Origin: an uncultured delta proteobacterium
GTDB taxonomy: Bacteria > Desulfobacterota > WTBG01
Length of the DNA: 64,000 nucleotides
Assembly: GCA_963793865.1 (NCBI GenBank)
Contig: CAWCBP010000004.1
Location: 292,526 to 356,525, forward strand
Reading direction: 5' to 3'
The translations under genes were made by a program, and so were the position numbers. The notes beneath the pieces were generated by a model, which saw only the letters and a program-made list of their open reading frames with translations, did no database searches and was not told the origin of the DNA. Shown here in pieces: positions 19,773 to 35,130 of the stretch; the stretch's first letter is position 1, and each line of letters begins with the position of its first letter.

Positions 19773-19788
19773 GATGATGCTCCTTCAT

Positions 19789-20091
19789 CTACCACTTCAT
19801 GAGATTGATATCGTCAACGTTTAAGGTTTCCCTGTTCCGGTAGAGCGCGATGATGATGCCCAGTCCCACGGCGGCCTCGGCGGCGGCCACGGTCATGACG
19901 AAAAAGACAAACACCTGGCCGTCGAGAGAGTCAAGGTGGCGGGAAAAGGTTATGAAGGCCAGGTTGGCCGCGTTGAGCATCAGCTCGATGCACATGAAGA
20001 TGACGATGGCGTTCCGTCTGGTGAACACGCCCCACACGCCGATAAAAAAGAGGATGACGCTTAAAATCAGATAATGGGAAAGGGGAACCAT
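19789..20091 (-). CDS. nuoK: NADH-quinone oxidoreductase subunit K
   Basis: [21 protein letters not shown]. Confidence 0.96.
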
Positions 20092-20129
20092 GGCTTGCGT
20101 CCTTTCTGTGCCGCCCCGGGCGGGACGGT

Positions 20130-20639
20130 TTAGAGCTTCTTTTTGGCCAGCACCACCGCCCCGATGATGGCGGCCAGCAGCAGCACCGAGGTTATCTCAA
20201 AGGGCAGAAGAAAATCGGTAAAGAGCGCCTTTCCGATGAGCGCGCTGTTGCCGATGGCATCGACCTTCTCCGGGGGATACGCCCCCTTGGCTCCGGTGAA
20301 GACGCTCATGGTGCTTGCGGATATGAAGGAAAAGGCGATGGCCAGGCACAGCACCAGGGCCCAGAACTTCTGCGGCCCCCGGCCGTCCCCCGCGGAAGAC
20401 TCCCGATCCACGTTGAGCAGCATGATCACGAACAGAAACAGCACCATGATCGCACCGGCATAGACAATCACCTGAACGGCGGCGATGAACTGGGCGTTAA
20501 GCTGGAGGAAGATGCCCGCCAGGCAGAAGAAGCACAGGATCAGAAAGAGCGCGCTGTGCACGGGGTTCCTTCTTAAAATCACCATCAGCGATGAAATCAC
20601 CATCACTGCGGCCAGACTGTAAAAAATAAGCGCTTCCAT
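20130..20639 (-). CDS. nuoJ: NADH-quinone oxidoreductase subunit J
   Basis: [37 protein letters not shown]. Confidence 0.96.
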
Positions 20640-20729
20640 AGAGTAACCTCTTGGTCAACGGTAGTTATCAGCCAACAGATGGTACTTACACACCAGAGAT
20701 GTTGAGTGGCATCAACCCGGGTCCCTTCC

Positions 20730-21164
20730 CTACTCTCTGAGGAGCCGCTCCTTGGTGTAGATCATGCTCTCCCGGGTGTAATCGGCAAGCTCATAGTCGC
20801 CGGTCAGCAAAAGGGCCCCCACCGGGCAGGCCTCCACGCAGTAGCCGCAGAAGATGCAGCGGGAGATGTCAATCTGGTAATGCTGGGCGTACTTGACATT
20901 GTTTTCCTTCTCACCCGCCTCAACGGTGATGCAGCGGGCGGGGCACACCGCCGCGCAGAGCGAGCAGGCCACGCACTTTTCTTTGCCCTCTTCATCCCGC
21001 AAAAGCTTATGCAGGCCGTGAAAGCGGGGATAGGGGGTCCGCCGCTCCTCGGGATACATTTGGGTGATGGGCTTCCCCAGTATGGTCGTACCGAGAAAAT
21101 ATGCCAGGGTTTCCTTCAGTCCCACCAGCAGCGCCCAGATGCGTTTGATCACAGAACCTACCAT
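20730..21164 (-). CDS. nuoI: NADH-quinone oxidoreductase subunit I
   Basis: CVACSLCAAVCP and CIFCGYCVEACP. Confidence 0.95.
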   Translation of the reverse strand: MVGSVIKRIWALLVGLKETLAYFLGTTILGKPITQMYPEERRTPYPRFHGLHKLLRDEEGKEKCVACSLCAAVCPARCITVEAGEKENNVKYAQHYQIDISRCIFCGYCVEACPVGALLLTGDYELADYTRESMIYTKERLLRE

Positions 21165-21178
21165 GCTTCATCCTTTGC

Positions 21179-22225
21179 TTAAAGCAGATTAACCATTAGC
21201 AGAACGGCGGTGACTACAATATTAAGCAGCGCCAGTGGAAACAGAACCTTCCAGCCAAACTCCATCAGCTGGTCATAGCGCAGGCGCGGATAGGTCGCCC
21301 GGAGCCAGATGAAGAAAAAGAGGCAGAGGAAGACCTTGGCGCCGAAGACGCCCATGGGGATCAGGGCAACCGCCAGCTGACCCGCCGGGTTAGAAGGCTG
21401 GAAGCTGCTGATGTCCACAAACGGCAGGTGCCACCCCCCGAGAAACAGGGTGGTAATCAGCGAGCCCATGACGATCATGTGGGCGTACTCGGCCATGAAG
21501 AAAAGGGCGAACTTCATGCTGGAATATTCCACGTGGAAGCCGGCCACCAGCTCGTTCTCCGCTTCAGGCAGATCAAAGGGCGAGCGGTTGCACTCGGCTA
21601 TGCCGCAGATGAGAAAGATGATGAACCCTATCGGCTGCTGCACCACGTACCAGATGTCCGACTGGGCCCGCACCACCTCAACCAGGCTCAGCGACCCGGT
21701 GAGCATGAGCACCCCGATGACCGAGAGCCCCATGGCGATCTCGTAGCTGATCATCTGCGCCGAGGAGCGGATCCCGCCCATGAGCGCGTATTTATTATTG
21801 GAGGCCCATCCCGCCAGGGTCACGCCGTACACGTTCATGGAGCCGAGGGCAAAGATGTAGAGGATGCCGATGTCCACGTCGGCAACCCGCAGATCGATGG
21901 TATGACCGAAGAGGGTGATCACGTTGCCGAAGGGAACCACCGCGAACGAGGCGAAGGCGCAGACCGCCACGATGAAGGGGGCAAGGATGTAGATGACCTT
22001 GTTGGCCTTCTCCACCACGATATCCTCTTTGAAAAAGAGCTTGATGCCGTCGGCAATGGGCTGCAGCAGGCCGTGCCAGCCCGTTCTCATGGGGCCGTAG
22101 CGCACCTGCATGTGCCCGAGCACCTTGCGCTCCAGCCAGGTGAGATAGGCGACGCAGGTGAGCAGTACGATAAACACCACTATGACCTTAAGCAGCATTA
22201 TTATCATGGCAGCCATACTTGTCAT
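21179..22225 (-). CDS. nuoH: NADH-quinone oxidoreductase subunit H
   Basis: ERKVLGHMQVRYGP, QPIADGIKL, PFDLPEAENELVAGFHVEYS, PRLRYDQLM. Confidence 0.96.
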   Translation of the reverse strand: MTSMAAMIIMLLKVIVVFIVLLTCVAYLTWLERKVLGHMQVRYGPMRTGWHGLLQPIADGIKLFFKEDIVVEKANKVIYILAPFIVAVCAFASFAVVPFGNVITLFGHTIDLRVADVDIGILYIFALGSMNVYGVTLAGWASNNKYALMGGIRSSAQMISYEIAMGLSVIGVLMLTGSLSLVEVVRAQSDIWYVVQQPIGFIIFLICGIAECNRSPFDLPEAENELVAGFHVEYSSMKFALFFMAEYAHMIVMGSLITTLFLGGWHLPFVDISSFQPSNPAGQLAVALIPMGVFGAKVFLCLFFFIWLRATYPRLRYDQLMEFGWKVLFPLALLNIVVTAVLLMVNLL

Positions 22226-22531: not shown

Positions 22532-25141
22532 CTACACCTTTTCCAGTTTGACCCAAGTCGGGACAAGATCCCTGCTGGTCAGCCGGTTGACGGGGTGGTC
22601 TGCAAAGTGGCAGGGAATATACACCATTCCCTTGGCCTGCTTTCTGCTGATTTTCACCTTTGCCTCCAGTGACCCCATCCTTGATGTAACCAGCACCTTC
22701 TCTCCATCCCCAAGGCCGTATGTCCCGGCATCGGCGGGAGACACCTCCACCCTGCCTCCGGACCCGAGCTCGTTCAACGCCGGGGCGTGGGTTGACAGGG
22801 AACCGGAATGAAAGAGCATGCTGCCGGTGCGCAGCAGCAGCGGATAGTCACCATCAATCCCGCGGGCCGGTTCGGCATGCTCGAGCGGGACAAAGCTGTA
22901 GCTCGTTCGCCCGCCGCCCGGCGGGGACGGCACAAGCCGGCCTCCCGCTCCGAGGGATTCGCAGCTGATGTCCGCGTAGAGAGGAACCAGCGAGCCGATC
23001 TCCCTCATCACGTCCTCAGGCCCGGCTGCCTGCATGACATGACCCATCCTGCGGGACAGCTCGCAGAAAATTTCCAGGTCTGTTTTGACCCCTTCCATCA
23101 CCGGCAGCGCCGGGGACAGCGCCTGCACCCTCCGCTCGAAGCTGGTATAGGTGCCTTTTTTCTCGGCGAAGCTGGCCACCGGCAGCACGACGTCGGCCTG
23201 CCGGGCGGTGGGGGTTAAAAACATGTCCTGCACCACCAGGAAATCCAGGGACTCCAGGGCCTTCAGGGTGTATTCGCTTTCAGGATAGTTAAGCAGCGGG
23301 TTTTCCCCTGCCAGGTACAGCGCGTGCAGCCTGCCTTCCGCCGCGCTGGTGATCATTTCCATGGCATTTTGACCGGGCCGCGCGGGAAGGGTCACCTTCC
23401 ACGCTTCTTCAAAGCGGCCCCGCGTCTTGTCATCACCCACTTCACCGAATCCGGGCAGAAAACCGGGAAGCACTCCCATGTCCAGGGTGCCCTGGGAATT
23501 GCACTTCTCCCCCAGGAAGGCGATGCCGCATCCCTCCCGCTTCACCATCCCGGTCAGCAGGGCGAGGTTGGCCACCGCCAGACCCAGCTTTTCATCGTCC
23601 GCGGGAATCCCCAGGCCGGTGGAAAGGAGGATGCACAGCCGCCTGCTTCCCGCAATCAGGCGGGCTGCCTGCGCGAGGTCATCCCGGCCGACGCCGGTCA
23701 CCCCTTCACAATACTCAGGGGTGTACCGGGCCACCGACCTGTTGAGGTTTTCAAGACCGGCGGTCGAGGAAGAGACAAACTCCCTGTCGTACAGCCCCTC
23801 GCTGATAATGATATTGATCATGCCCTGGAGCAGGACCAGCTCGGTTTCGGGCCGGTGGATGAGCGCGCAGCTGGCCAGCCGGCTGTGCTTGATCGGCCGC
23901 TCGCCGGCGACAACCAGCTTTCGTTCGTCCCGTTTTACCGCCATGGTCACCTGGTATCCCACCACCGGATGCGTCTCGGAGAGGTGGGAGCGCAGCAGGA
24001 ACACGGTGTCCGCATTGCGTATGTCGTTCAGCGTGGCCGTTCCCGCGGTCAAGCCCAGCGCAGGCCTCAGCCCCTTCATCAGCCCCGAGTAGCTGTATCC
24101 CCCGGCGTGGTCGATGTTGTTGGTGCCGACGACGGCGCGTAAAAATTTCTGAAACAGGTAGGCCTCCTCATTGGTCAGGCGGCCGGAGCAGATGCCGCCG
24201 ATCCCGTCGGGCCCGTACTTTTGTTTGACCGCGCCCAAACCCCCGGCTATCTTCTCCATCGCCTCCGCCCAGGTGGCCCGCACCAGCCCCTCGGCGCCCT
24301 TTCTCACCAGGGGGCTGTTCATCCGCTCGGGGCTGGAGACATACCCGTAGCCGAACCGGCCCTTCGCGCAGAGGCTCCCGCGGTTGGCCCCGATGCTGTC
24401 GTCCCCGATCACCCGGTAGATGCGGTTGTTCTTCACCCCCAGGGTGATGGTGCAGCCGGTGCTGCAATATGAGCAGACGGTGCTGGTCCTGGTTAGCTCC
24501 CAGGAGCGCGCCTTGTATTTGAAAAGCTTGTCGGTGAGGGCGCCCACCGGGCAGATGTTAACGCACTCTCCGCAGAACTCGCAGTCCAGCACCCGGTCAA
24601 AGTCGGTGCCGATCCTGGTCTTGAATCCCCGGTTGACAAAGCTGATTTCGGATACGCCCACCATCTCCTCGCACACCCGCGCGCACATACCGCAGAGGAC
24701 GCAGCGGTTCACATTCCTTTCTATCAGGTGAGAGGCGGTTTCAGCCGGCTGGTTGAACTTGCGGTCAAGAAACCGGTTGCTGCTCACCTCGTATTCATAC
24801 ACCAGGTCCTGCAGCTTGCACTCGCCCCCCTTGTCGCACACGGGACAATCAAGGGGATGGTGCACCAGCAGGAGCTCAAGCAGCGTTTTGCGGGCGCTTC
24901 TCACCGCGGGGGTGTTGGTGCTTACCACCATGCCGTTGGCGGCCGGCGTGGAGCAGGAAGGGACCAGGCGGCCCTTCATCTGCTCGACCTCAACCACGCA
25001 CATGCGGCACGCCCCGAAGGGCATCAGGCGCTTGTGGTAGCAAAAGGTGGGAATATAAACCCCGGCAGCCTCCGCAGCCTCGAGGATGCTGGAGCCGTCC
25101 GCTACCTCTATTTCCCGATCGTCAATGGTCAAACTGATCAT
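22532..25141 (-). CDS. nuoG: NADH-quinone oxidoreductase subunit G (long, molybdopterin-oxidoreductase fold)
   Basis: [2Fe-2S] motif, HPLDCPVCDKGGEC, two CxxCxxCxxxC, CSYCSTGC; the FDH Cys/Sec-His position reads IDHAGGYSYS. Confidence 0.88.
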   Translation of the reverse strand: MISLTIDDREIEVADGSSILEAAEAAGVYIPTFCYHKRLMPFGACRMCVVEVEQMKGRLVPSCSTPAANGMVVSTNTPAVRSARKTLLELLLVHHPLDCPVCDKGGECKLQDLVYEYEVSSNRFLDRKFNQPAETASHLIERNVNRCVLCGMCARVCEEMVGVSEISFVNRGFKTRIGTDFDRVLDCEFCGECVNICPVGALTDKLFKYKARSWELTRTSTVCSYCSTGCTITLGVKNNRIYRVIGDDSIGANRGSLCAKGRFGYGYVSSPERMNSPLVRKGAEGLVRATWAEAMEKIAGGLGAVKQKYGPDGIGGICSGRLTNEEAYLFQKFLRAVVGTNNIDHAGGYSYSGLMKGLRPALGLTAGTATLNDIRNADTVFLLRSHLSETHPVVGYQVTMAVKRDERKLVVAGERPIKHSRLASCALIHRPETELVLLQGMINIIISEGLYDREFVSSSTAGLENLNRSVARYTPEYCEGVTGVGRDDLAQAARLIAGSRRLCILLSTGLGIPADDEKLGLAVANLALLTGMVKREGCGIAFLGEKCNSQGTLDMGVLPGFLPGFGEVGDDKTRGRFEEAWKVTLPARPGQNAMEMITSAAEGRLHALYLAGENPLLNYPESEYTLKALESLDFLVVQDMFLTPTARQADVVLPVASFAEKKGTYTSFERRVQALSPALPVMEGVKTDLEIFCELSRRMGHVMQAAGPEDVMREIGSLVPLYADISCESLGAGGRLVPSPPGGGRTSYSFVPLEHAEPARGIDGDYPLLLRTGSMLFHSGSLSTHAPALNELGSGGRVEVSPADAGTYGLGDGEKVLVTSRMGSLEAKVKISRKQAKGMVYIPCHFADHPVNRLTSRDLVPTWVKLEKV

Positions 25142-25206: not shown

Positions 25207-26994
25207 CTACTCAATGGCATTGAACTTACAGGCCATGATGCAGTTCTTGCACTTGACGCACTTCTCCCGGTCAATTGCGGCCACCTGCTTCTTTTCCCAG
25301 GTGATCGCCCCGGCGGGACAGGCCTTGAAGCACTGGCCGCACCGCTTGCAGAGCTCCGGATTCACCGCAAACTTGATCAAGGAAATGCAGGAGTGCGCGG
25401 GGCAGCGCTTTTCCTTTACGTGGGCCTCATATTCGTCGCGGAAATAGCGCAGGGTGGTGAGCACCGGGTTGGGCGCGGTATTGCCCAGGCCGCAGAGGGC
25501 CGTGCTCTTGATGGTTTGGGCCAGATCCTTAAGCGTCTCCAGGTCTTCTTCCTTGCCCTCGCCGGCGGTGATCCTGGTCAGGATATCAAGCATCATCTTG
25601 GTCCCCACCCGGCAGGGAATGCACTTGCCGCAGGACTCCTCCTGGGTGAACCCCAGAAAGAATTTCGCGATATCAACCATGCAGGTGGTTTCATCCATCA
25701 CCACCATGCCGCCGGACCCCATGATGGCACCGGTCTGACTGATCGACTCATAGTCCACCGGGGTGTCAACCAGCGACTCGGGAATGCACCCGCCCGACGG
25801 GCCGCCCATCTGCACCGCCTTGAACTTGCGCTTGCCCTTGATGCCGCCGCCGATATCGTAGATGATGGAGCGCAGGCTGGTGCCCATGGGCACTTCAACC
25901 AGGCCGATGTTGTTGACCGCGCCGGTCACGGCAAAGACCTTGGTGCCCTTGCTCTTTTCCGTTCCCAGCTCGCTGTACCAGCTGCCGCCGTGCAGGATGA
26001 TGGGCGGAACATTGGCGTAGGTCTCCACGTTGTTTAAAATGGTCGGCTTTCTCCACAGTCCCTTGTACGCGGGGAACGGAGGCCGCGGCCGCGGCATGCC
26101 CCGCTTTCCCTCAATGGAGGTCATCAGGGCCGTTTCCTCGCCGCAGACAAACGCCCCGGCTCCCTGGTAAATGTCAATGTCAAAATCGAAGTCCGAGTTA
26201 AGAATGTTCTTTCCCAGCAGGCCGTAGTCCCGCGACTGCCGGATGGCCACCTTGAGCCGGGAAACGGCGAGCGGATATTCCGCGCGCACGTAAATGTAGC
26301 CCTGATGGGCGCCGATGGCCTTGGCCGCGATGGTCATCCCCTCCAGAACCGAATGCGGGTCCGCCTCCAGGATGCTGCGGTCCATGAACGCGCCGGGGTC
26401 ACCCTCGTCCCCATTGCACAAAACATACTTCACCTCGCCCCTGGCCTTGGCGCAGAACTCCCACTTCAGCCCGGTGGGGAACCCCGCGCCGCCGCGGCCC
26501 CGAAGCCCGGAAATCTTGACCTCCTCGATGATGCCCTCGGGCGTCAGCTCGGTGAGCGCCTTTCCCAGGGCCTGGTATCCGTCACGTCCGATGTACTCTT
26601 CAATCTTTTCAGCATCGATGATGCCGCGGTTCCGTAATGCCCGGAGCACCTGCAGCCCGAAGAAGGAGATGTCCTGCATGCGGGGCACCGTCGCCTTCTT
26701 TTCCTCCTCCCGGTACATGAGCTTCTCGACCGGCCTTCCCTTGAGAAAATGCTCCGACACCAGCAGGGGGATGTCCTCCCGGGTGAGCCTTTGATAAAAG
26801 ATCCCCTCGGGGTAGACCACCATGACCGGGCCGACGGCGCAGAAGCCGTTGCATCCGGTGATGACCACCTGCACCTCTTCCTCCAGTCCGCACTTCTTGA
26901 GCTCTTCTTGAAGCGCCGTTCGCACTTGTAGCGACTTGTTGGACACACAGCCGGTTCCGGCGCAAATCAACGCATGTGAGCGAAAAGTTTTCAT
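25207..26994 (-). CDS. nuoF: NuoF/HydB (BfuB)-type NADH-binding flavoprotein
   Basis: N-terminal thioredoxin-like [2Fe-2S], GRGGAGFPTG, GDEGDPGAFMDR, GGPSGG, ESCGKCIPCR, C-terminal 2x[4Fe-4S]. Confidence 0.92.
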   Translation of the reverse strand: MKTFRSHALICAGTGCVSNKSLQVRTALQEELKKCGLEEEVQVVITGCNGFCAVGPVMVVYPEGIFYQRLTREDIPLLVSEHFLKGRPVEKLMYREEEKKATVPRMQDISFFGLQVLRALRNRGIIDAEKIEEYIGRDGYQALGKALTELTPEGIIEEVKISGLRGRGGAGFPTGLKWEFCAKARGEVKYVLCNGDEGDPGAFMDRSILEADPHSVLEGMTIAAKAIGAHQGYIYVRAEYPLAVSRLKVAIRQSRDYGLLGKNILNSDFDFDIDIYQGAGAFVCGEETALMTSIEGKRGMPRPRPPFPAYKGLWRKPTILNNVETYANVPPIILHGGSWYSELGTEKSKGTKVFAVTGAVNNIGLVEVPMGTSLRSIIYDIGGGIKGKRKFKAVQMGGPSGGCIPESLVDTPVDYESISQTGAIMGSGGMVVMDETTCMVDIAKFFLGFTQEESCGKCIPCRVGTKMMLDILTRITAGEGKEEDLETLKDLAQTIKSTALCGLGNTAPNPVLTTLRYFRDEYEAHVKEKRCPAHSCISLIKFAVNPELCKRCGQCFKACPAGAITWEKKQVAAIDREKCVKCKNCIMACKFNAIE

Positions 26995-27015: not shown

Positions 27016-27399
27016 TTAATAGGTCGTTTCACTGCCCACCGCCAGGGCATATTTTTCCACTATCCTGCCGCCGATAACGTGTTCCACCAGGATCTCCCTG
27101 GTCTTCCCGTCATCCAGATCCACGTACTTGACCGGCGCTTCGCCGAGAAGCTCAACCGTGGCCATGGGCTCGCGGCTGCACAGCCCCGCGCATCCGGAGG
27201 TGGTAACGATGACATCCGTGATCTGCCGCTTGGCAATCTCATCCATAAACGCGCTCATGACCGCCCGCGCCCCGGACGCGATTCCGCAGGTCCCCATGTG
27301 GACGGTTATCTTGGCGCGCTGGCCGCCTTCCCGGAGGGTGGTGGCGGCTTTTGATTCCTCCTTTATCCGTTTCAAGTCATCGAGCGTCAGTTTCGGCAT
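27016..27399 (-). CDS. Thioredoxin-like [2Fe-2S] ferredoxin (HydD/HndB-like)
   Basis: VHMGTCGIASGA...TSGCAGLCSREP. Confidence 0.88.
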   Translation of the reverse strand: MPKLTLDDLKRIKEESKAATTLREGGQRAKITVHMGTCGIASGARAVMSAFMDEIAKRQITDVIVTTSGCAGLCSREPMATVELLGEAPVKYVDLDDGKTREILVEHVIGGRIVEKYALAVGSETTY

Positions 27400-27430: not shown

Positions 27431-27580
27431 CAGGCTGTTGAAAAACGCCCATCTGCTGCGTTACACTCATCCTTCGTCATTGCAGCGTACTCACATGTAC
27501 GCCTCATTCCTCAGGATTTCGCGTGCCTTGCATCTGGATGTTTTTGAACAGCCTGCGGAAAACTATTTTTTCAACAACCT
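27431..27580. mobile_element. MITE (27431-27555) with CAGGCTGTTGAAAAA-type terminal inverted repeats, plus an extra partial TIR
   Basis: caggctgttgaaaaa...tttttgaacagcctg; related sequences at 38379 and 61870. Confidence 0.75.
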
Positions 27581-28109
27581 AATAATAATTTTTCTTTATG
27601 GTGTCTAAAGCCGTCGCCGGCTCCAGCAGGCCATAGGTGTCTTCGTTAACCATCATGGCCGGCGCGAGGCCGCAGCACCCGATGCAGCGCACGCCCTCCA
27701 GGGAAAATTTCTTGTCCGGCGTCACCTCGCCTTCGTGTATGCCCAGCTCCTGCTGCAGCCGCTTGTAAATTTCCTCGCTCCGCTTGACGAAACAGGCCGT
27801 CCCCAGGCAGACGCGGACATTGTATTTGCCCCGGGGCTTCATGGTAAAATAGGAGTAGAAGGAAACCACCCCGTACACCAGGCTGGGCGAAGTGTTCAGG
27901 CCTTCGGCAATTCTGCGCTGCACCTCCGCGGGCAGAAAGCCGCACACCTCCTGACACTGCTGGAGAACGGGTATGAGCGCACCGGCCTTGCCGACGTGCT
28001 CATCGATGACCCGGTCAACCTTTTCCCACTGCTCCGCGGTTATCTCCACGGTAACGTCCTGCTGCTTCTGCGCTGATTCTGCGTTCATTACTTGGAATAC
28101 CTCCACCAT
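27579..28109 (-). CDS. nuoE: NuoE/HydC-type [2Fe-2S] subunit
   Basis: VYGVVSFYSYF, VCLGTACFV, RCIGCCGLAP. Confidence 0.92.
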   Translation of the reverse strand: MVEVFQVMNAESAQKQQDVTVEITAEQWEKVDRVIDEHVGKAGALIPVLQQCQEVCGFLPAEVQRRIAEGLNTSPSLVYGVVSFYSYFTMKPRGKYNVRVCLGTACFVKRSEEIYKRLQQELGIHEGEVTPDKKFSLEGVRCIGCCGLAPAMMVNEDTYGLLEPATALDTIKKNYY

Positions 28110-28122: not shown

Positions 28123-28668
28123 CTAATGCACGCCCAGCTGCGCCAGGCCCTCCTCGAGATCGCCCCTGATCAGCCCGATCACCCGGGGATCGGAAACGGG
28201 GACCTCGCCCAACTCCTTCCCGATCACCGCTGTGTCAAGGCTGTAGGTTCGGCCATCCCTGCGATGATGATAATAAAAGCTGATCCCGGGATTGCCCGCG
28301 ATGAGGGTGATCAGGGTCTCAACCATGTTTCCCCAGGGCTTGCGATCAATGTGGCTTGCCTGAAAGGTACCGGTCAGCTTCGTCCCCCTGCCCGGCTCGG
28401 ATTCTATGTGAACCCCGCCATTGCACGCCCGGGCCGCCTGGGCAAAGAGCGGTAATCCCAGGCCCACCTTTCTGGTCGTCCGCGTTGTCACAAAAGGATC
28501 CAGCACCCTGTCCGCCATCTTCCTGCTCATGCCCGTGCCGTCGTCGGTAATTTCTATGGTGAGCAGATCCCTGATGCTGTCCTCGTCTATCCCGATTTCG
28601 ATCCGCGTTGCCGCCGCGGTTATTGAATTCTCGGCAAGATCAAGAATGTGGAGGGAAAAATCCTGCAC
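28123..28668 (-). CDS. Stand-alone HATPase_c (histidine kinase-like ATPase)
   Basis: HILDLAENS, DDGTGM, DPFVTTRTTRKVGLGLPL, SHIDRKP; no sensor or HisKA domain. Confidence 0.88.
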   Translation of the reverse strand: MQDFSLHILDLAENSITAAATRIEIGIDEDSIRDLLTIEITDDGTGMSRKMADRVLDPFVTTRTTRKVGLGLPLFAQAARACNGGVHIESEPGRGTKLTGTFQASHIDRKPWGNMVETLITLIAGNPGISFYYHHRRDGRTYSLDTAVIGKELGEVPVSDPRVIGLIRGDLEEGLAQLGVH

Positions 28669-28672
28669 GCTG

Positions 28673-29422
28673 TCACCCTACCCCGAGCACCTTTCTGCCC
28701 TCTTTTCCCCCGAGCGCCAGTCTCATCTCGCCGATGCCGGCGGCCGACATCAGAAAGACGGTCGAACTTCTGCCGATCCCATCAAGGGAGTGGGCATCCG
28801 ATGAGCTGATGAAGGGGAGATGGTCGAGCCCGGGAAACCGCCTCCGCGCCTCATCCAGGCCCGTGGCCGGCGAAACCTCCAGCGCATCCAGCGCCAGCCC
28901 CGGCGGCACAAAGCCGAGCTGGCTGATGATGCTGTATGCCTCGCGATCAATGTGGGAGGCAACGGCAAGACCGCCCCGGGAGTGAATCAGCTCGACCACC
29001 GCTTCCAGGGGAAGGGTTGTTGCCCCGATCAGCAATTTTTCATTAAAGGACACGACCTCCTCGTGTTCATTGACCACAACCTGGCAGCCGAAGGTTTTTT
29101 CATCGTTTTTGCCGGGGAGGTGCTCGTACACAACCCCCTGCACCTCAAGGGCATGCGCTTCCGTTTCAAAAAGGCCCAGGATGTGAATTTCTTCCCGAGT
29201 GGTTATCTCCATTCCCGCCAGCGCCGCCAGCCCGGCGTCCTGCGCCGCCTTGTGCAGGGCGGGAAAATTCTCGCAGGAGTTGTGGTCGCACACCGCAATC
29301 ACCTGCAGGCCCGCCTCCACCGACCGTCGCACAATGGCACGGGGCGACATTTCGACAGGCTCGGTACAGGGAGAGAGGATGGAATGGATATGCAAATCCG
29401 CCCGATACGCCCTGAGCATCAC
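28673..29422 (-). CDS. PHP domain phosphoesterase
   Basis: DLHIHS, CDHN, GMEITTREEIH, SHIDR, SSDAH. Confidence 0.9.
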   Translation of the reverse strand: MMLRAYRADLHIHSILSPCTEPVEMSPRAIVRRSVEAGLQVIAVCDHNSCENFPALHKAAQDAGLAALAGMEITTREEIHILGLFETEAHALEVQGVVYEHLPGKNDEKTFGCQVVVNEHEEVVSFNEKLLIGATTLPLEAVVELIHSRGGLAVASHIDREAYSIISQLGFVPPGLALDALEVSPATGLDEARRRFPGLDHLPFISSSDAHSLDGIGRSSTVFLMSAAGIGEMRLALGGKEGRKVLGVG

Positions 29423-29763
29423 CTCGTTCCGGAAATGCCGAGGCCGTACAGCCTGCCCACGAGCTCAAAGGTCTGCAGCTCGCTCACCATAAGCGGGACG
29501 CCTTCCTGACGAGCCTTTTCCGCCGTCTGTTCCTCGGGCTTCCTGCCCTGAACCACAACGATGCCGGCCAGCCCCTTGAGCGAGGCAACGGCGATGACAT
29601 TGGGATGCGCCTGCATGGTCACCCAGATGTCGCCCTCCCTGCTGTTGGCCATGACGTCACTCAGCAGGTCGCTCGCGTAACCGCCGGTAACCTCCCCCTC
29701 CAGGTTCTCCCCGGCCGCCACCACCTTCAGCTCCAGTTTCTCCACGATATCCTTGAGCTTCAT
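29419..29763 (-). CDS. DRTGG domain protein
   Basis: VTGGYASDLLSDVMA, WVTMQAHPNVIAVA. Confidence 0.85.
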   Translation of the reverse strand: MKLKDIVEKLELKVVAAGENLEGEVTGGYASDLLSDVMANSREGDIWVTMQAHPNVIAVASLKGLAGIVVVQGRKPEEQTAEKARQEGVPLMVSELQTFELVGRLYGLGISGTR

Positions 29764-29783
29764 CCCATTCCCTTCAGTGGTTA

Positions 29784-31097
29784 TCACGCACCCTTCTTGC
29801 GAATCGAAAGAGGGGCTTTCTGAGCTATTTCAAGTCCCCTGAGCAGCGATTCCATGGTCGCTTCCCTGAGCTTGAACACGCAATCAGTGACCTCACCCCT
29901 TCCCTGGATGACATCCTCGGCAAAGGATTTACAGTTCGGGGCGCCGCATGCCCCGCAATTAATGCGCGGGAGACTCTCTAAAATGGATTCCCGCTCCTTT
30001 ACTTTCCTGATCGCCTCCCTGGCATCCGTGCCCAGCGGCTGCACGGGATAGGTGGACAGCTCAACATCGCATGACAGGTGGGCGCGCATCCGCTCCACTT
30101 CAGCGAGGTTAATGTTTAACTTCCTCCCCAGCTGCTGAATCAGTTTCATGGCCTTGATCTTGGCCAGAAAGCGATTATCCACCGCAAGGGGGCCCCCCAC
30201 GCACCCGCCGGGGCAGGCCCATAATTCCAGGTAGTTTACATTGGTGATTTTGCCGCGCTCCACGTCCTCCAGTATTTTGATTACATTTTTAACCCCGTCC
30301 ACGGCTATGGCATTCTCGATTTCGAGGCCGGCAATGCATGCGCCGGGGATCCCCGTGGCCACACCGAAGCCCCCCGAGTCGTGAAGCGGCTCAAGCGACT
30401 TGATCTTGCGGATGGCGCTAAAGAGAACCCCGTAGATATCCGAAATGGCAATGGCACCGTCCAGGGTCGGATCCGATTTGAAGATGGGGTGATTTACGGC
30501 GATCATCTTGGCGGGGCAGGGGGTGATAAAAATGGCCCCGACATCCTGGGGGCTTATTCCCAGTATTTTGGCCTTGGCCATCTTATATGCGCCGGCGATG
30601 GCGCTGGGCGCCTCCATGGAAAGCAGATTTCCCATGAGATCGGGAAAGTTTATCTGGATCAGCCTGACAACGGCCAGGCAGACGGTTGAGATGTAGGGCT
30701 TGTTTTGAGAATAGCTCTGGAGGTGTTCCTTGAGCACCGCCGAATAAATTTCACAGGCCCTGCCCACATCATAGGCCTCGTTAAAACCCAGACCCTTAAG
30801 ACCGTTTAAAATATGGTTGGGGGTAACGCCCATGCTGTACTGGGAGTACAGAACCGGAGAAGGTATGGCGATGGTGTATTTAAACCTGGTCAGGTCTTCG
30901 AACGACCCGGTCATGGATCGGACCGCCCGGGCGGGACATACCCGGATGCAGTCACCGCAGTCAATGCACCGGTCCTCCAGAATGAGGGCCTTGCCCTCAC
31001 GGATGCGCATGGCCTCGGTTGGACACGCCCGCATGCACTGCATGCAGCCGGTGCATTTATCGGTTTCCACCTCGATGGAGTGATAATATTTGCTCAT
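29784..31097 (-). CDS. [FeFe]-hydrogenase-like Fe-S protein (putative sensory HydS/group D-like)
   Basis: N-terminal 2x[4Fe-4S]; H-cluster-like motifs STVCL, TPCPAKM, ELWACPGGCVGG; C-terminal CGACGAPNC...C Fe-S domain. Confidence 0.82.
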   Translation of the reverse strand: MSKYYHSIEVETDKCTGCMQCMRACPTEAMRIREGKALILEDRCIDCGDCIRVCPARAVRSMTGSFEDLTRFKYTIAIPSPVLYSQYSMGVTPNHILNGLKGLGFNEAYDVGRACEIYSAVLKEHLQSYSQNKPYISTVCLAVVRLIQINFPDLMGNLLSMEAPSAIAGAYKMAKAKILGISPQDVGAIFITPCPAKMIAVNHPIFKSDPTLDGAIAISDIYGVLFSAIRKIKSLEPLHDSGGFGVATGIPGACIAGLEIENAIAVDGVKNVIKILEDVERGKITNVNYLELWACPGGCVGGPLAVDNRFLAKIKAMKLIQQLGRKLNINLAEVERMRAHLSCDVELSTYPVQPLGTDAREAIRKVKERESILESLPRINCGACGAPNCKSFAEDVIQGRGEVTDCVFKLREATMESLLRGLEIAQKAPLSIRKKGA

Positions 31098-31552
31098 GGC
31101 CGGTCTTTATTTCCGGTTAGGATGACCATTTCCACCCGCGTGCCCTCACCTACCACCGAGCTGATGCGCAATTCATCGGTGTTCTTCTTGATGTTGGGCA
31201 ATCCCAGGCCGGCCCCGAAGCCCATTTCCTTGATTTCCCTGGAGGAGGTTGAATAACCCTCCTGCATGGCCAGCTCGATATCCGGAATGCCCTGCCCCTC
31301 ATCATCGGCAATGACCGTGAGAAGATCCGGGGTAATGGCCAGGTGAAACGCTGCATGCCGCGCATAGCACACCACGTTCATCTCGGCTTCATAGACGGCA
31401 ATAGCCGCCCGCCTGATGATGTCATGGCTTATGCCGATGTCTTTTAAAATCGCCTTAATGCTGCTTGAAACCTCGCCGGCATGAATGAAATCGCCGCCCT
31501 GTACGGCAAACTCCCGCTCCAGCAGGGGCTCAGCTTGTTTTTCCTGCATCAT
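31094..31552 (-). CDS. RsbW/RsbT-like Ser/Thr kinase (anti-sigma regulatory factor fold)
   Basis: YEAEMNVV, DEGQGIPDIELAMQEGYST, GFGAGLGLPNIKK. Confidence 0.88.
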   Translation of the reverse strand: MMQEKQAEPLLEREFAVQGGDFIHAGEVSSSIKAILKDIGISHDIIRRAAIAVYEAEMNVVCYARHAAFHLAITPDLLTVIADDEGQGIPDIELAMQEGYSTSSREIKEMGFGAGLGLPNIKKNTDELRISSVVGEGTRVEMVILTGNKDRP

Positions 31553-31904
31553 CAACTCTTTCAATACAACCGGACAGGCCGTGCTTGAACAACCTGCCGC
31601 AGGTTTCAAACATGATGTAACGGGTGCAGAAGAGCGGAATCTTTTTGGCCCGGGCAAGCTTGATCGCTTCCTCGTCAGGCCTTTTGCCCCTCACGAAGAC
31701 AATGCCCAGCAGCTCCAGCATTTCAGCGGTGCGCACCACTTGCGGGTTGGTAATCCCGGTTATGAGGAGCGCGCCCTCCCTGGCAAAGGCCAGAACGTCG
31801 CTCAGGAGGTCGGAAGCAAAGGCGCCCCTGATGGTATCCTCCATGCGGTCATCACCGACCACAACCTCCGCTCCCAAAATATCCGCCAGCTCTCTGAAGG
31901 TCAT
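31530..31904 (-). CDS. DRTGG domain protein
   Basis: AFASDLLSDVLA, LLITGITNPQVVRTAEM, VFVRGKRP. Confidence 0.85.
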   Translation of the reverse strand: MTFRELADILGAEVVVGDDRMEDTIRGAFASDLLSDVLAFAREGALLITGITNPQVVRTAEMLELLGIVFVRGKRPDEEAIKLARAKKIPLFCTRYIMFETCGRLFKHGLSGCIERVDDAGKTS

Positions 31905-31933: not shown

Positions 31934-33121
31934 CTACCGGTCCACCTCTCCCAGGCAGATGTCAATGCTGCCGATAATGGCAACGATGTCGGCCATCATC
32001 CGCCCCTGCGCCATGGTGCAGAACGACTCCATGTTCACAAAGGAGGGGGTTCTGATCTTCACCCGGTAGGGCTTGCTGCCCCCATCGCTCACAATATAAA
32101 AGCCCAGCTCCCCTTTTGACGACTCCACGCTGCAATACGCCTCGCCTTTGGGCACATTGAATCCCTCGGTCATCAAATGGAAGTGGATGATCAATGACTC
32201 AATGCTTTCCTGCACCAGCTCCTTCGGAGGAGGCACCACCTTGGGGCTCACGGCGTTGAACGGGCCCGAGGGCAGCCGCTCCAGGGCCTGCCTGATGATC
32301 CGGTTGCTCTGGCGCATCTCCTCCAGCCGCACCAGGTAGCGGTCATACGAATCCCCGTACCGGCCGGTGGGTATCTCGAAATCAAAGTGATCGTAGGAGG
32401 AATAGGGATTGGCCTTGCGCAGATCCCACTTTACCCCGCAGCCCCTCAGGCAGGGGCCGGAAAGCCCCAGGGCGATGCCCTCTTCCGCTGAAATGACCCC
32501 CACGCCCTTTGTCCGGTTGAGCCAGATCTTGTTTTCGGTCAGCAGGCGCTCGTACCCGTCAATCCGAGAGGGCAGCACCTCACAGAAGGCCTTCACCTTT
32601 TCTTCAAACCCGTCAGGCAGGTCGGCGGCAAGGCCCCCGATGCGAAAGTAGCTCTGGTTCATCCGGGCCCCGCCCACCATTTCAAACATGTCCAGGGTTT
32701 CTTCCCGCTCGCGGAAGCAGTAGAGCAGCGGCGACATGGCCCCGATGTCCAGGGCATGGGTTCCCAGCCAGATGAGATGGCTCTGGATCCTGGTAAGTTC
32801 GGCGAGCAGCACCCTGGCATACTGGGCCCGGAGCGGAACCTCCAGGTCCAGAAGCTTCTCAACCGTAAGCACGTAGGCAAGGTTGTTGATGAAGGGCGAG
32901 GTATAATCCAGCCGGTCGGTGAGGGTGATGAACTGGTGGTAGGTTTTATGCTCGGCCAGCTTCTCGATGCCCCGGTGCAGATACCCCAGCACCGGGGTTG
33001 CCTTGGTGACCACCTCGCCGTCGAGCTCCAGCACCACCCGGAGCACCCCGTGGGTGCTTGGATGCTGGGGGCCCATGTTCAGGGTTACCACCTCTGTCCT
33101 GATGTCAGACGCTGTTTCCAT
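31934..33121 (-). CDS. nuoD: NADH-quinone oxidoreductase subunit D
   Basis: NMGPQHPSTHGVLR, GYLHRGIEK, DRLDY, GEVDR; no Ni-binding CxxC. Confidence 0.96.
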   Translation of the reverse strand: METASDIRTEVVTLNMGPQHPSTHGVLRVVLELDGEVVTKATPVLGYLHRGIEKLAEHKTYHQFITLTDRLDYTSPFINNLAYVLTVEKLLDLEVPLRAQYARVLLAELTRIQSHLIWLGTHALDIGAMSPLLYCFREREETLDMFEMVGGARMNQSYFRIGGLAADLPDGFEEKVKAFCEVLPSRIDGYERLLTENKIWLNRTKGVGVISAEEGIALGLSGPCLRGCGVKWDLRKANPYSSYDHFDFEIPTGRYGDSYDRYLVRLEEMRQSNRIIRQALERLPSGPFNAVSPKVVPPPKELVQESIESLIIHFHLMTEGFNVPKGEAYCSVESSKGELGFYIVSDGGSKPYRVKIRTPSFVNMESFCTMAQGRMMADIVAIIGSIDICLGEVDR

Positions 33122-33139
33122 ACTGTGCAAAGCCCCCGT

Positions 33140-33600
33140 TTATCTTCCCCGCAGCGGAAAATCTTTTCTGAGCGGATACTCTTTAAAGCCGTCCGGGGTG
33201 AGGATCCTCCTCAAATCAGGATGATCGCTGAAGGTTATTCCCAGGAGATCGTAGCACTCCCGCTCGTGCCAGTTCGCCGTCTTCCAGACAGAAACCACGG
33301 AAGGCACGGTAAGGTCATCGTCCGGGGGGAGGTCTTCATGCGCAGCCGGTGCCGGTGCTTCATGGAATAGAGGTGATACACCACCTCAAACCGGGGCGCC
33401 CGGCCCAGGTAATCGACGCCGCAGAGGTCGGAGAGGAAGTCAAACCCGCAGGAGGGATCTTCCTTGAGGAAGCGCGACACCTCGAGCAGGCGGGACAGCT
33501 TGACCCGTATGGTATGCTCATCCTTATAGACCGCCGTTTCTTCGATGGCCTCAGGAAAGGTTTCCTTTATTTTCCCCACCAGCTCTTCCAGGTCAGCCAT
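33140..33600 (-). CDS. nuoC: NADH-quinone oxidoreductase subunit C, frameshift in homopolymer near 33325
   Basis: LCGVDY...[10 protein letters not shown]; shifted frame gives [26 protein letters not shown]...[11 protein letters not shown]. Confidence 0.92.
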
Positions 33601-34078
33601 TGCTCGTTTCCCTTAAGTGTTCCTTGTCTATCTTTTTCTGAAGCTGCATGATGGCATAGAGCAGGGATTCCGGACGGGGCGGACAGCCGGGGACGTAGAC
33701 ATCCACGGGGATAATCTCGTCCACCCCCTGCACCACGGCATAGGTATCAAAAATTCCGCCCGAGCAGGCGCAGGCGCCCATGGCAATGACCCACTTGGGG
33801 TTGGGCATCTGATTGTAGATCCTCCTGGCCACGGGGGCCATTTTCCTGGTCAGGGTGCCGGCAACAATCATCAGGTCTGCCTGCCGCGGCGAGGCCCTGA
33901 AAACCTCGGCGCCGAAGCGGGCAATATCATAGCGGGCGGCGGCGGTGGCCATCATTTCGAGGGCGCAGCAGGCCAGCCCGAAGGTCGCGGGCCAGAGCGA
34001 CGATTTGCGGGCCCAGTTGACCAGTTTCTCAAGGGTGGTGGTGATGATGGTGTCACCAAAACAGCTTTCTACTCCCAT
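33593..34078 (-). CDS. nuoB: NADH-quinone oxidoreductase subunit B
   Basis: [36 protein letters not shown]. Confidence 0.96.
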
Positions 34079-34434
34079 TCCAGAGCCCCTTTCTTCCATA
34101 CATATATAAAGCCGACCAGCAGGATGCCGATAAAAACAGCCATTTCTAAAAAGACAAATCCTTTATACTGGTTAAACTGCCGGAAGACAATTGCCCAGGG
34201 GTATAAAAATACCGCCTCCACGTCGAAGACGATAAACAGCATGGCAATGATGAAAAACTTGACTGAGAACCGCGTGCGCGCATTGCCCACCGGGTCAAGG
34301 CCGCATTCGTAGGGCATGAGCTTTTCCCGGGTCGCCGCCTTCCGCCCGAAAAGGGCCGACAGAGCGATGACCGCCCCCGCGAAGAGAACCGACAGAAAAA
34401 GAAAAATGATCAGCGGCGTGTATCCTTCAGCCAT
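34069..34434 (-). CDS. nuoA: NADH-quinone oxidoreductase subunit A
   Basis: [27 protein letters not shown]. Confidence 0.96.
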
Positions 34435-34449: not shown

Positions 34450-35130
34450 CTAGTAATTAATCGTGCCCTGCTTTCGTGCCAGTTCCCGCCCCCGGTCGAT
34501 GAGCCGGAAGGCCGCCTGCTGCGCCAGCACCACGGCATCTTCCGTGGGAAGATAGGCGGGCAGGCTGGCATCGAACAGGATCCGCGCCTCAGGCGGAAAT
34601 TCCTCATCCCCGTTCCAGAAAAGAAATGCCATGGGGACTTTGGGGAGAGCGGCAATGATGACACCCCGGTCACCCGCGGGCGCCTTTGTTCCTCCCAGGG
34701 CGCGACCGGCCTCTTCAAAAAGATCCTCCCGCTGCGCAAAAAAATCGAGCAGCGGCTTTTGAGATCTCCTGTCGAAAGCCGGGTAATACATGTCCCCGCC
34801 GGACAATTGTCGGAAGCTGATCCACTCACCGGCAAGCGGGCTGCCCTGCGCCTGTATAAGGTAATGCAGAATGACGAGCCTGCTCCAGAGGGGAACCTCC
34901 CCTCCTTCGCCCTGATAGGTTACCGTTATGTCGGGAAAATGTATGAGGCAGTATTGATTGAAAAAATTGAGCTTGACCAGGCAGCGCCCGTCATCTTTTT
35001 TCTCAAAAAAAGCCCCGCTTTTTCCTGCCCGCTCCTCTATGTCGGCACTTCTTAAAACCTCGCAGGCCAACGTAAAAGCATGGTCGTACGGTGATCCGGC
35101 AGGGTTGATTCCCGCATTGCGCGTGTCCAT
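34450..35130 (-). CDS. DUF3786 family protein
   Basis: ILHYL, WISFRQLSGGDMYYPAF, ALPKVP, GDEEFPPEARILFD. Confidence 0.85.
   Translation of the reverse strand: MDTRNAGINPAGSPYDHAFTLACEVLRSADIEERAGKSGAFFEKKDDGRCLVKLNFFNQYCLIHFPDITVTYQGEGGEVPLWSRLVILHYLIQAQGSPLAGEWISFRQLSGGDMYYPAFDRRSQKPLLDFFAQREDLFEEAGRALGGTKAPAGDRGVIIAALPKVPMAFLFWNGDEEFPPEARILFDASLPAYLPTEDAVVLAQQAAFRLIDRGRELARKQGTINY

Follow-up and report, generated by a model that had tools for sequence, protein, structure and literature searches.

A Six-Gene Cassette with a Hydrogenase-Like Fe-S Protein and a SpoIIAB-Like Kinase Lies within a Predicted Nuo-Bfu Complex I Operon and Accompanies BfuBC Modules

Introduction

What would a serine kinase, a hydrogenase-like iron-sulfur (Fe-S) protein and a phosphoesterase do in the middle of an operon for complex I? 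The question is raised by a stretch of DNA of 64,000 nucleotides (nt), termed here the window, from an uncultured delta proteobacterium (GTDB lineage Bacteria; Desulfobacterota; WTBG01), that spans positions 292,526–356,525 of the forward strand of contig CAWCBP010000004.1 in GCA_963793865.1, a metagenome-assembled genome (MAG) with a completeness of 98.6%. Between nuoD and nuoE of this window lies a cassette of six genes, coding in this order for a small DRTGG protein (DRTGG1), a SpoIIAB/RsbW-like GHKL serine kinase, an [FeFe]-hydrogenase-like Fe-S protein, a second DRTGG protein (DRTGG2), a PHP-domain phosphoesterase and a stand-alone GHKL ATPase.

The operon that surrounds the cassette is of a kind already proposed. 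A complex I with a Bfu input module, named Nuo-Bfu, was predicted by Schut et al. (2022; PMC9304861) with Geobacter sulfurreducens as the example, and in the sections of that article used here it is predicted to oxidise reduced nicotinamide adenine dinucleotide (NADH) jointly with reduced ferredoxin; the same sections also cite that the Bfu-type nuo genes of G. sulfurreducens are co-expressed. The NuoF of the window is of the Bfu type, thus this part of the locus is in print as a prediction. The word "kinase" is absent from the text of the same article, figures and supplements apart. As described below, the cassette accompanies BfuBC modules (the NuoE/HydC- and NuoF/HydB-type subunits) whatever their catalytic partner, and it persists in lineages in which the H-cluster maturase HydG is not found; both points suggest control of the shared NADH/ferredoxin input module rather than hydrogen sensing. 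The reading preferred here, to which we give slightly better than even chances, is that the cassette is a signalling accessory of BfuBC, which in this operon would exert redox-sensing control over electron entry into complex I.

Results

The Cassette at the nuoD–nuoE Junction

The domains were called by Pfam and NCBIfam scans of the open reading frames (ORFs), and the order of the operon was read from both. The whole operon with the cassette lies on the minus strand in the order DUF3786, nuoA–D, the six cassette genes, nuoE, ferredoxin, nuoF, nuoG and nuoH–N (Table 1), with the Bfu genes placed mid-cluster and all of nuoA–D and nuoH–N present; nuoA, nuoH, nuoJ and nuoK form a single set in the whole genome. 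Overlaps, or gaps of no more than 29 nt, are found throughout the cassette. The DRTGG1 gene starts 29 nt after nuoD and overlaps the kinase gene by 23 nt if the latter begins at M36, its likely true start (31552; the ORF as listed is 31094–31657). Overlaps of 4 nt join the kinase to the Fe-S protein gene, the latter to DRTGG2 (or a 20-nt gap from a later ATG) and DRTGG2 to the PHP gene, and gaps of 4 and 13 nt separate the GHKL ATPase gene from the PHP gene and from nuoE, respectively. The six tightly coupled genes claimed in the original prediction, which had been made from the sequence of the window, are thereby borne out in both order and coordinates. In a consensus scan no terminator-like site was found in the spacers within or flanking the cassette, and the promoter and terminator sites found in the window all lie inside coding sequence. 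Contigs from four RNA-library runs match small parts of the window only, are short and mostly 90–95% alike; one of them (X5, record 29) bridges the PHP–DRTGG2 junction. Carry-over of DNA into these libraries is possible.

Is this arrangement real? Among 42 species genomes from the window's class an orthologue of the Fe-S protein (E ≤ 1e-40) is present in 13, and in 10 of these, the window's genome counted, nuoD is directly upstream of the cassette. All ten junctions fall within three families: eight in f1 (five genera), one in f3 (G012) and one in f4 (G013), the three families being represented by 16 genomes of 59–98.6% completeness. In the remaining three genomes the locus ends at a contig end (G001), or cassette genes occur without nuoD (G019 and G024). 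The identity of the Fe-S protein across the junction genomes goes down to 44%. Moreover, two separately assembled public MAG contigs, L002 and the 152-kb L003, labelled Thermodesulfobacteriota and "delta proteobacterium", preserve the full order from DUF3786 to nuoI, with Fe-S proteins 99 and 97% identical to that of the window. The search for nuoD–cassette–nuoE synteny, which had been proposed along with the original prediction, thus found the junction well beyond the window. Because the same order recurs in ten genomes and in two separately assembled contigs, the view that it is an assembly chimera or a chance juxtaposition is refuted and may be put practically out of the question.

The junction is also a variable spot, as seen when the nuo operons of 14 further genomes were inspected. 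A reduced four-gene cassette (kinase, DRTGG2, PHP and GHKL ATPase) occupies it in G231, and only two genes (DRTGG2 and GHKL ATPase) do so in G114. G029, from the family of G013, has the same nuoE–ferredoxin–nuoF–nuoG genes with no cassette, a Bfu-type NuoF with neither cassette nor ferredoxin is encoded in G141, G203 and G322, five genomes have only a C-terminal piece of NuoF at this position, and the NuoF of the nuo operon of G074 is of canonical size. In family f19 the full cassette directly follows nuoN, as seen in 4 of 26 loci newly fetched from the phylum sample. The nuoD–cassette adjacency across the phylum was read from fetched loci, the NuoD matches being the best 150 of 460.

Two further arrangements were noted in this part of the operon. 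In G005, from another genus of the window's family, 5.7 kb between the GHKL ATPase gene and nuoE (L094, 9205–14456) carry genes for a Cache/HAMP histidine kinase, a sigma-54-dependent response regulator, an M54 peptidase and a GcvH-domain protein. In family f51 nuoD and nuoH are some 11 kb apart (L098 of G156, 4699–15852; L099 of G086, 4193–15493), and the intervening segments match none of the nuo or cassette proteins of the window.

Linkage of the Cassette to the BfuBC Core

The gene set was originally said to precede, as a rule, operons of bifurcating [FeFe]-hydrogenases, and this is supported by its neighbours in metagenomes and by hyd operons of Clostridia. In Clostridia MAGs the order is DRTGG, kinase, Fe-S protein, DRTGG, PHP, HydC, HATPase, ferredoxin, HydB and HydA, and HydB is 59–61% identical to the NuoF of the window. 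A scan of metagenome contigs gave 564 relatives, and among the best 80 of these the adjacent genes are the kinase (76), DRTGG (72), PHP (59) and the GHKL ATPase (46). As for partners, a BfuB/NuoF-like gene was counted 34 times, a HydA signature 27 times and a full-length NuoG/FdhA-like gene once, with nuo membrane or Q-module genes near two cassettes, both of them placed after nuoN. All these counts are lower bounds, since many of the contigs are short.

A tie to hydrogenases as such was not borne out, however. Across 401 genomes spread evenly over the phylum, the Fe-S protein (E ≤ 1e-50) is encoded in 53; of the 26 newly fetched loci 19 have cassette neighbours and in 7 the Fe-S protein gene stands alone. 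Sixteen cassette loci were read with up to 20 kb of context, and a full NuoF-like gene is present in 13 of them. The other three show a NuoF fragment at the edge of the locus, a contig end after the ferredoxin gene, or no such gene within 20 kb (G024). The catalytic partner varies: it is nuo in G005, G012 and G013, a selenocysteine (Sec) formate dehydrogenase directly after nuoN in family f19 (G164, G309 and G054) and HydA in G424, G401 and G248, while in G086 a NuoG-like gene with a weak NuoB-like match is possibly a NiFe-type Bfu hydrogenase. HdrA-like and MvhD genes accompany the cassette in G074 and a formate transporter gene in G135. The cassette is, therefore, an accessory of BfuBC modules in general, whatever the catalytic partner, and is not specific to hydrogenases. 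Since it tracks the BfuBC core and not the hydrogenase, BfuBC is pointed to as the regulated target.

The Fe-S Protein

Group D (M2e) comprises putative sensory hydrogenases that are poorly characterised, lack a PAS domain and are encoded near kinases and bifurcating hydrogenases (PMC3561251, in the part used here). The Fe-S protein of the window, which is the sole match to Fe_hyd_lg_C (PF02906) in the genome, has the corresponding domain plan, i.e., four cysteines for the [4Fe-4S] part of the H-cluster, two N-terminal [4Fe-4S] domains and a C-terminal four-Cys cluster, with no PAS domain found by Pfam. By this plan, and by synteny with the cassettes beside HydABC, it may be regarded as Group-D-like. 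In an alignment of 29 sequences the cysteines that serve the N-terminal, H-domain and C-terminal clusters are conserved (C140, C194, C295 and C299, as well as C381, C384, C389 and C406, are invariant), save for a Cys of the first cluster that is lost in four f1 genera. Other residues decay in this lineage: the Lys of motif 2 is Glu in G009, and a "GGE" column has lost its Glu in 7 of 7 f1 sequences, this column having been equated by eye with the proton-pathway Glu of TamHydS via primers printed in PMC10407848. The genome contains one group-4-like NiFe hydrogenase locus, next to a Mo enzyme, and no DsrA was found in it.

The di-iron site of the H-cluster needs the maturases HydE, HydF and HydG. 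The best match to HydG in the window's genome reaches 43 bits against a cut-off of 312 and the best match to HydF 99 bits against 326, with HydE not searched, and families f1, f3 and f4, with 16 genomes, have no HydG above the cut-off, vs 11 of 42 genomes in the whole class. With HydG and HydF not found, the protein would be unable to carry the di-iron site in this organism, and it probably holds [4Fe-4S] clusters only. The persistence of the cassette in lineages where no HydG was found argues for redox rather than hydrogen sensing; hence we infer that the protein acts here as a [4Fe-4S] redox sensor, and the hydrogen sensor that the original prediction had considered became unlikely.

The Kinase, DRTGG, PHP and GHKL Proteins

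By profile comparison the kinase matches SpoIIAB structures (E = 1e-11), RsbW being weaker, and its score with the NCBIfam spIIAB model (44.8 bits) is below the cut-off of 135. Its N-box (E55/N59), G1 box (D84/G86/G88) and G2 box are invariant in 24 sequences. The spoIIAA gene overlaps spoIIAB, and in the same manner the DRTGG1 gene stands just upstream of the kinase gene and overlaps it. DRTGG2 is 37.5% identical to DRTGG1 and is the paralogue retained in the reduced nuo cassettes of G231 and G114. Both proteins contain the motif ASDLLSDV, in which candidate phospho-serines had been proposed. The motif is present as claimed and its second Ser is invariant among 57 aligned DRTGG sequences and in both paralogue families, where the conserved core reads D-[LM]-[LMI]-S-[DEW]-[VIM]; in DRTGG1 this residue is S35 of DLLSDV, invariant in 24 orthologues. 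The first Ser, in contrast, is Ala in most DRTGG1 orthologues, and by conservation the second one is the candidate site.

Prediction of a kinase–DRTGG1 complex gave scores of 0.60, 0.60 and 0.64, with 0.00 as the best of three controls, and it lends weak support to the pairing. The runs show at least 88% contact agreement, and the predicted local distance difference test (pLDDT) of the partner is at least 89. Among solved complexes 58 of 80 attain the mark set for such predictions, and among mismatched pairs 2 of 110 do so, counts that are only rough, own alignments having been used; at 0.60 or under there were 7 of the 80 solved complexes and both passing mismatches. Taken together, the kinase motifs, the invariant Ser and the predicted complex make DRTGG1 a candidate partner or substrate of the kinase, and partner-switching phosphorylation is plausible.

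The PHP protein has its metal-binding motifs, judged by eye, and its nearest solved relatives, both weak matches, are the putative phosphoesterase 3e0f and the 5′–3′ exoribonuclease 7ug9. In the GHKL ATPase the residues N14, D42, G44 and G46 are invariant in 29 sequences, and its alignment-based model has a pLDDT of 90.4 (37.8 for the single-sequence fold). Foldseek matched this model to the catalytic and ATP-binding domains of histidine kinases over its N-terminal half and to MutL/PMS2 and Topo VI-B over its full length, with template modelling (TM) scores of 0.5–0.56, so both a kinase-like and a MutL/Topo VI-B-like reading are matched.

The NADH-Input Module and NuoG

NuoE, the ferredoxin and NuoF are HydC-, HydD- and HydB-like, respectively, and co-linear with the hyd operons of Clostridia; for NuoE the best NCBIfam model is HoxE, every model staying below its cut-off. 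NuoF, as in BfuB, consists of an N-terminal thioredoxin-like 2Fe-2S domain, a flavin mononucleotide (FMN) domain, NADH_4Fe-4S and two C-terminal [4Fe-4S] clusters (Pfam), and with these extra cluster domains it is longer than a canonical NuoF, which has about 420–450 residues with FMN and the N3 cluster only. It scores 871 bits with NiFe-HydB (7t2r_B) and 839 bits with FeFe-HydB (7q4v_B), vs 417 bits with Thermus Nqo1, and 515 bits with nuoF_fam, below the cut-off of 559. Judged by its genes, the operon is that of a 14-subunit Nuo-Bfu complex I, in which BfuC/NuoE, an extra ferredoxin and BfuB/NuoF would be joined to a NuoG with a dead active site.

When 36 BfuB/NuoF sequences were placed in one tree, the NuoF of the window grouped with the nuo-embedded genes of its class, and its neighbours were Hdr-linked, formate-dehydrogenase-linked and other cassette-linked forms, while the NuoF of the cassette-free operons G141 and G203 formed a separate clade with long branches. 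Forcing the 11 nuo-embedded NuoF together costs 121 log-likelihood units (approximately unbiased, AU, test, p = 1.9e-6), the group having been named after the tree was seen and the branches being long. According to this tree the nuo-embedded NuoF proteins are not one clade. The overall picture is that expected if the nuoE/F part, along with the ferredoxin gene and the cassette, had been exchanged against soluble Bfu operons. The C-terminus of BfuB varies within the family, with two [4Fe-4S] clusters in the window and a GltD-like NAD(P)H domain in G005 (1016 aa).

NuoG resembles the alpha subunit of formate dehydrogenase along its full length (476–480 bits with FdsA chains), and its match to mycobacterial NuoG (318 bits) covers the N-terminal half only; the Fdh-alpha model gives 532 bits, below the cut-off of 666. 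Its active site is not that of a formate dehydrogenase: Ser-Tyr stands where a Sec/Cys-His pair would be, and Gly where the catalytic Arg would be, whereas true Sec-FdhA proteins in the same alignment retain U-H and R. In the NuoG tree it falls in a clade of nine rows (support 99) of dead-site NuoG from nuo operons with or without a cassette. Because the clade is shared with cassette-free operons, NuoG is regarded as a native subunit of such a complex I. The idea that it is a formate dehydrogenase disabled only recently and imported together with the cassette was considered and ruled out by the dead-site motifs and by the same clade. It had been supposed that a hyd operon minus its HydA replaced the native nuoEF. 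The Hyd-type NuoE, ferredoxin and NuoF, and the lack of another Fe_hyd_lg_C protein in the genome, agree with that, but NuoG did not take the place of HydA.

Relatives and paralogues of these subunits add several observations. The genome encodes, besides its one nuo set, seven other NuoE/F-like pairs. On contig C1 (737643–744600) a soluble paralogue set lies outside nuo, its identity to the window proteins being 47% for NuoE, 61% for NuoF and 45% for a NuoG-like protein with a dead site; this is a Bfu enzyme for which no catalytic subunit is apparent. NuoE and the FMN domain of NuoF are missing from several nuo operons of the phylum; in L095 (G309, 7100–9076) a 658-aa protein with NADH_4Fe-4S, Fer4_20 and Pyr_redox_2 (GltD-like) is encoded between nuoD and nuoG, and similar matches occur in L097, L101, L103, L106 and L109. 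In the nuo operon of G062 (L103, 10345–12963) the protein at the NuoG position keeps the selenocysteine-His pair and the catalytic Arg, the gene order being nuoD, a NuoF-C-terminal/GltD-like gene, the NuoG-position gene and nuoH; by its sequence this complex I may have an active formate dehydrogenase as input subunit.

Features of the Window and Neighbouring Genes

Table 1. Positions of the nuo operon, the cassette and a repeat in the window.
Feature	Position	Strand	Basis and remarks
DUF3786 gene	34450..35130	-	PF12654, 181 bits; 15 nt upstream of nuoA
nuoA, nuoB, nuoC (short, 121 aa), nuoD	31934..34434	-	Oxidored_q4, Oxidored_q6, Complex1_30kDa (partial match), Complex1_49kDa
nuoD	31934-33130	-	Complex1_49kDa 404 bits; NCBIfam NuoD 594 bits, above cut-off
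DRTGG protein 1 (124 aa)	31530..31904	-	PF07085, 37 bits
SpoIIAB/RsbW-like GHKL Ser kinase (152 aa from M36)	31094..31552	-	HATPase_c_2, 33 bits
[FeFe]-hydrogenase-like Fe-S protein (437 aa)	29784..31097	-	Two Fer4, Fe_hyd_lg_C 92.5 bits, C-terminal FeS PF04060 49 bits
DRTGG protein 2 (122 aa)	29419..29787	-	PF07085, 28.8 bits; likely start ATG at 29763
PHP-domain metal-dependent phosphoesterase (249 aa)	28673..29422	-	PF02811, 38 bits
Stand-alone GHKL ATPase (181 aa), without His-phosphotransfer domain	28123..28668	-	HATPase_c, 57.5 bits
NuoE/HydC-type (BfuC) [2Fe-2S] subunit	27579..28109	-	PF01257, 164 bits
Interspersed repeat copy (~150 nt), nuoE–ferredoxin spacer	27431..27580	.	Genome blastn; outside the system
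Small thioredoxin-like [2Fe-2S] ferredoxin, HydD-like (127 aa)	27016..27399	-	NCBIfam 2Fe-2S ferredoxin 34.7 bits, below cut-off
NuoF, HydB/BfuB type (595 aa)	25207..26994	-	Pfam, PDB matches, tree
NuoG, BfuA-like (869 aa)	22532..25141	-	NCBIfam Fdh-alpha 532 bits, NuoG 468 bits, both below cut-off
nuoH, I, J, K, L, M, N	14746..22225	-	Pfam

The DUF3786 gene is probably the first gene of the nuo operon. Its place upstream of nuoA is also kept in L002, L003, G005 and G011, and it may be an overlooked first gene of such operons. Divergent from the operon, at 35420–37723 on the plus strand, are two NfnAB-like genes, for a 273-aa protein with a DHODB Fe-S-binding domain and a 472-aa GltD-like protein (Fer4_20 and Pyr_redox_2), the latter being the same module that is fused to NuoF in relatives. 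The repeat in the nuoE–ferredoxin spacer has terminal inverted repeats. By blastn it matches the genome at 82 places, and about 40 of these matches cover nearly its whole length at 85–97% identity; it is missing from the same spacer of the 97%-related L003 and gave no Rfam match. Its word depth in contigs of sediment RNA libraries is about 1100, with many different flanks. It looks like a miniature inverted-repeat transposable element (MITE) or a repetitive extragenic palindromic (REP) element and is possibly transcribed.

Discussion

Proposed Mechanism

How might the six proteins act on complex I? In the mechanism proposed here, the hydrogenase-like Fe-S protein, unable to receive the di-iron subcluster in this organism, would be a [4Fe-4S] redox sensor of the ferredoxin/NAD(H) state and would set the activity or the partner choice of the SpoIIAB/RsbW-like kinase. 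The kinase would bind the small DRTGG proteins and phosphorylate the invariant Ser of D-L-x-S-D-V, the PHP phosphoesterase would reverse this phosphorylation, and the GHKL ATPase would be a further, ATP-dependent switch. The output is expected to fall on the BfuBC input module, be it on its activity, its assembly or the expression of the operon, so that electron entry into complex I from NADH and reduced ferredoxin would follow the redox state of the cell. A bolder form of this proposal, which we consider rather improbable, is a post-translational redox switch on the input arm of complex I, in which a sensor derived from a hydrogenase, but now devoid of H2 chemistry, would monitor the ferredoxin/NAD(H) poise by its [4Fe-4S] clusters and gate the flow of NADH and ferredoxin electrons into the quinone pool by a new kind of partner switching, with a SpoIIAB-like kinase, DRTGG adaptors and a PHP eraser. 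If that were true, every Bfu enzyme linked to a cassette would be under the same switch, and the "sensory hydrogenases" of fermenters would serve the Bfu core as redox sensors instead of sensing H2.

Several points weigh against the redox-signalling proposal. The functional link between cassette and complex I is drawn from their genes, and the docking of NuoE, the ferredoxin and NuoF on the membrane arm is likewise a prediction. The cassette is dispensable, being lost in G029 without loss of the module. No RNA-library contig in the four runs bridges the nuoD–DRTGG1 or the GHKL ATPase–nuoE junction. The lack of maturases is read from a MAG, which even at its high completeness can miss genes. 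The score of the kinase–DRTGG1 complex falls in a class in which errors outnumber correct predictions except where the pairing was probable to begin with, and a protein-phosphatase role of the PHP protein is a guess, because its nearest solved relatives act on nucleotides or RNA and not on proteins. Finally, neither a STAS nor a PP2C domain, and likewise no sigma-factor or DNA-binding domain, was found in the cassette, the genome as a whole not having been searched for a target; it is for this reason not a canonical partner-switching module, yet it may work like one though outside the classical family.

Alternative Explanations

If not signalling, what else could bind the cassette so strictly to BfuBC? 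The six proteins might be assembly or maturation factors of the BfuBC core, serving cofactor insertion and GHKL-type chaperoning. Their linkage to BfuBC whatever the catalytic partner would be expected of such factors, the GHKL ATPase resembles MutL/Topo VI-B over its full length as much as it does kinases, and no output domain is present in the cassette. However, Bfu-type operons do without the cassette in G029, G141, G203 and G322, as do the seven other NuoEF-like loci of the window's genome, the kinase closely resembles the anti-sigma kinase SpoIIAB by profile, and the four-gene form of the cassette keeps the kinase, DRTGG and PHP trio, which resembles a kinase, its substrate and a phosphatase. 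We regard this explanation as unlikely, though by no means negligible. Another one concerns the complex rather than the cassette: NuoE, the ferredoxin, NuoF and NuoG could form with the cassette a soluble Bfu enzyme nested in the nuo operon, the membrane complex being an 11-subunit ferredoxin-type complex I. The paralogue set on contig C1 lies outside nuo with its dead NuoG in the same clade, the cassette-Bfu block after nuoN in family f19 carries a real Sec-FdhA, and the nuo-embedded NuoF proteins are not monophyletic, all of which would suit a nested enzyme. The genes occupy, on the other hand, exactly the canonical nuoEFG position, conserved over three families; they belong to the only nuo set of the genome, next to which no second NuoEFG is encoded; most members of the NuoG clade come from nuo operons; and the co-expression of Bfu-type nuo genes in G. 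sulfurreducens, as cited in the sections of PMC9304861 used here, points to one complex. A nested soluble enzyme is held to be rather unlikely.

The sensor itself could still hold an H-cluster and report the partial pressure of H2 to complex I. It keeps the four Cys of the [4Fe-4S] part of the H-cluster together with most of motifs L1–L3, TamHydS, when matured artificially, takes up an H-cluster and is reactive towards H2 (PMC13104023, in the part used here), and with a group-4-like NiFe hydrogenase locus in the genome H2 may be made by the cell. The failure to find HydG and HydF here, or HydG in any of the 16 genomes of the three families, speaks against it, as do the lack of any other [FeFe] hydrogenase in the genome, the loss throughout the f1 sequences of the Glu in the column eye-matched to the TamHydS proton pathway, and the presence of the cassette also beside formate dehydrogenase, Hdr and Nuo modules. 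Sensing of H2 is, on this balance, very unlikely, and redox-sensing control of the BfuBC module is kept as the preferred reading.

What follows if the cassette is such an accessory? Because it follows BfuBC, it bears on the question of Group D signalling, with BfuBC as the likely regulated target, and its persistence where no H-cluster maturase was found argues that a sensor of this type is able to function as a simple Fe-S redox sensor. A minimal working set (kinase, DRTGG, PHP and GHKL ATPase) and the candidate partners within it can be read from the reduced cassettes. It would be the first case found in the literature covered of a dedicated signalling module encoded inside a complex I operon, and it bears on how anaerobes control electron entry into respiration.

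Comparison with Known Systems

The input module of the window lies, like canonical NuoEFG (Thermus, E. coli), between nuoD and nuoH, and its NuoF has the same FMN and N3-cluster domains. It differs by about 150 extra residues with three more clusters in NuoF and by the extra ferredoxin gene, and the scores of NuoF to canonical NuoF are about half of those to HydB. The closer likeness is to Nuo-Bfu (PMC9304861, in the sections used here): in a nuo cluster of 14 genes a BfuABC-type module stands where NuoEFG would be, BfuB has an extra N-terminal 2Fe-2S and C-terminal 2x[4Fe-4S], and NuoG belongs to the dead-site clade that includes the cassette-free operons G141 and G203. Unlike that system the window has the six-gene cassette between nuoD and nuoE and the extra ferredoxin gene, and unlike the G141/G203 type its NuoF is nested among BfuB of soluble, cassette-linked enzymes.

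For the sensor, the nearest counterpart, compared by domain plan, is Group D with TamHydS, with which it shares two N-terminal [4Fe-4S], the H-domain, the C-terminal four-Cys cluster and the lack of PAS; kinase genes adjoin in both, and the gene order is co-linear with cassettes beside HydABC. The differences are that HydA, HydG and HydF were not found in the window's genome, that the gene is placed in a complex I operon and that several residues of the protein decay in this lineage. According to a 2026 TamHydS study, it is still to be found with which partners Group D proteins interact and how they signal (PMC13104023, in the part used here), in agreement with the earlier claim that the mechanism of the cassette is unresolved in the literature. 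HydS/Hfs proteins (Group C, PAS) of Ruminococcus albus and Thermoanaerobacterium are also hydrogenase-like sensors beside a kinase and a phosphatase and are thought to regulate redox metabolism (PMC5707799, in the part used here). The window protein has no PAS, and its accessory genes and genomic partner differ; HydS/Hfs was ruled out as the same system, being PAS-type and different.

The kinase part recalls the SpoIIAB–SpoIIAA and RsbW–RsbV–RsbU systems, in that a small GHKL Ser kinase with intact N-box, G1 and G2 boxes comes right after a small protein with an invariant Ser and that a phosphoesterase gene is present in the cluster. It departs from them in that the small partner is DRTGG and not STAS, the phosphoesterase is PHP and not PP2C, and no sigma factor gene is found in the locus. 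In the literature covered, subscription journals, figures and supplements apart, no account was found of the six-gene cassette as a unit or in or after nuo operons, nor of its general linkage to BfuBC or its persistence without maturases; reviews of multimeric hydrogenases and of Thermoanaerobacter kivui likewise make no mention of it. The original prediction had counted this locus as a candidate for an undescribed system, and this holds in part: the Nuo-Bfu prediction, Group D sensory hydrogenases beside kinases and SpoIIAB-type kinases are already in print. What appears to be new is that the cassette is placed inside nuo operons, that it travels with BfuBC whatever the partner and that it persists where HydG is not found.

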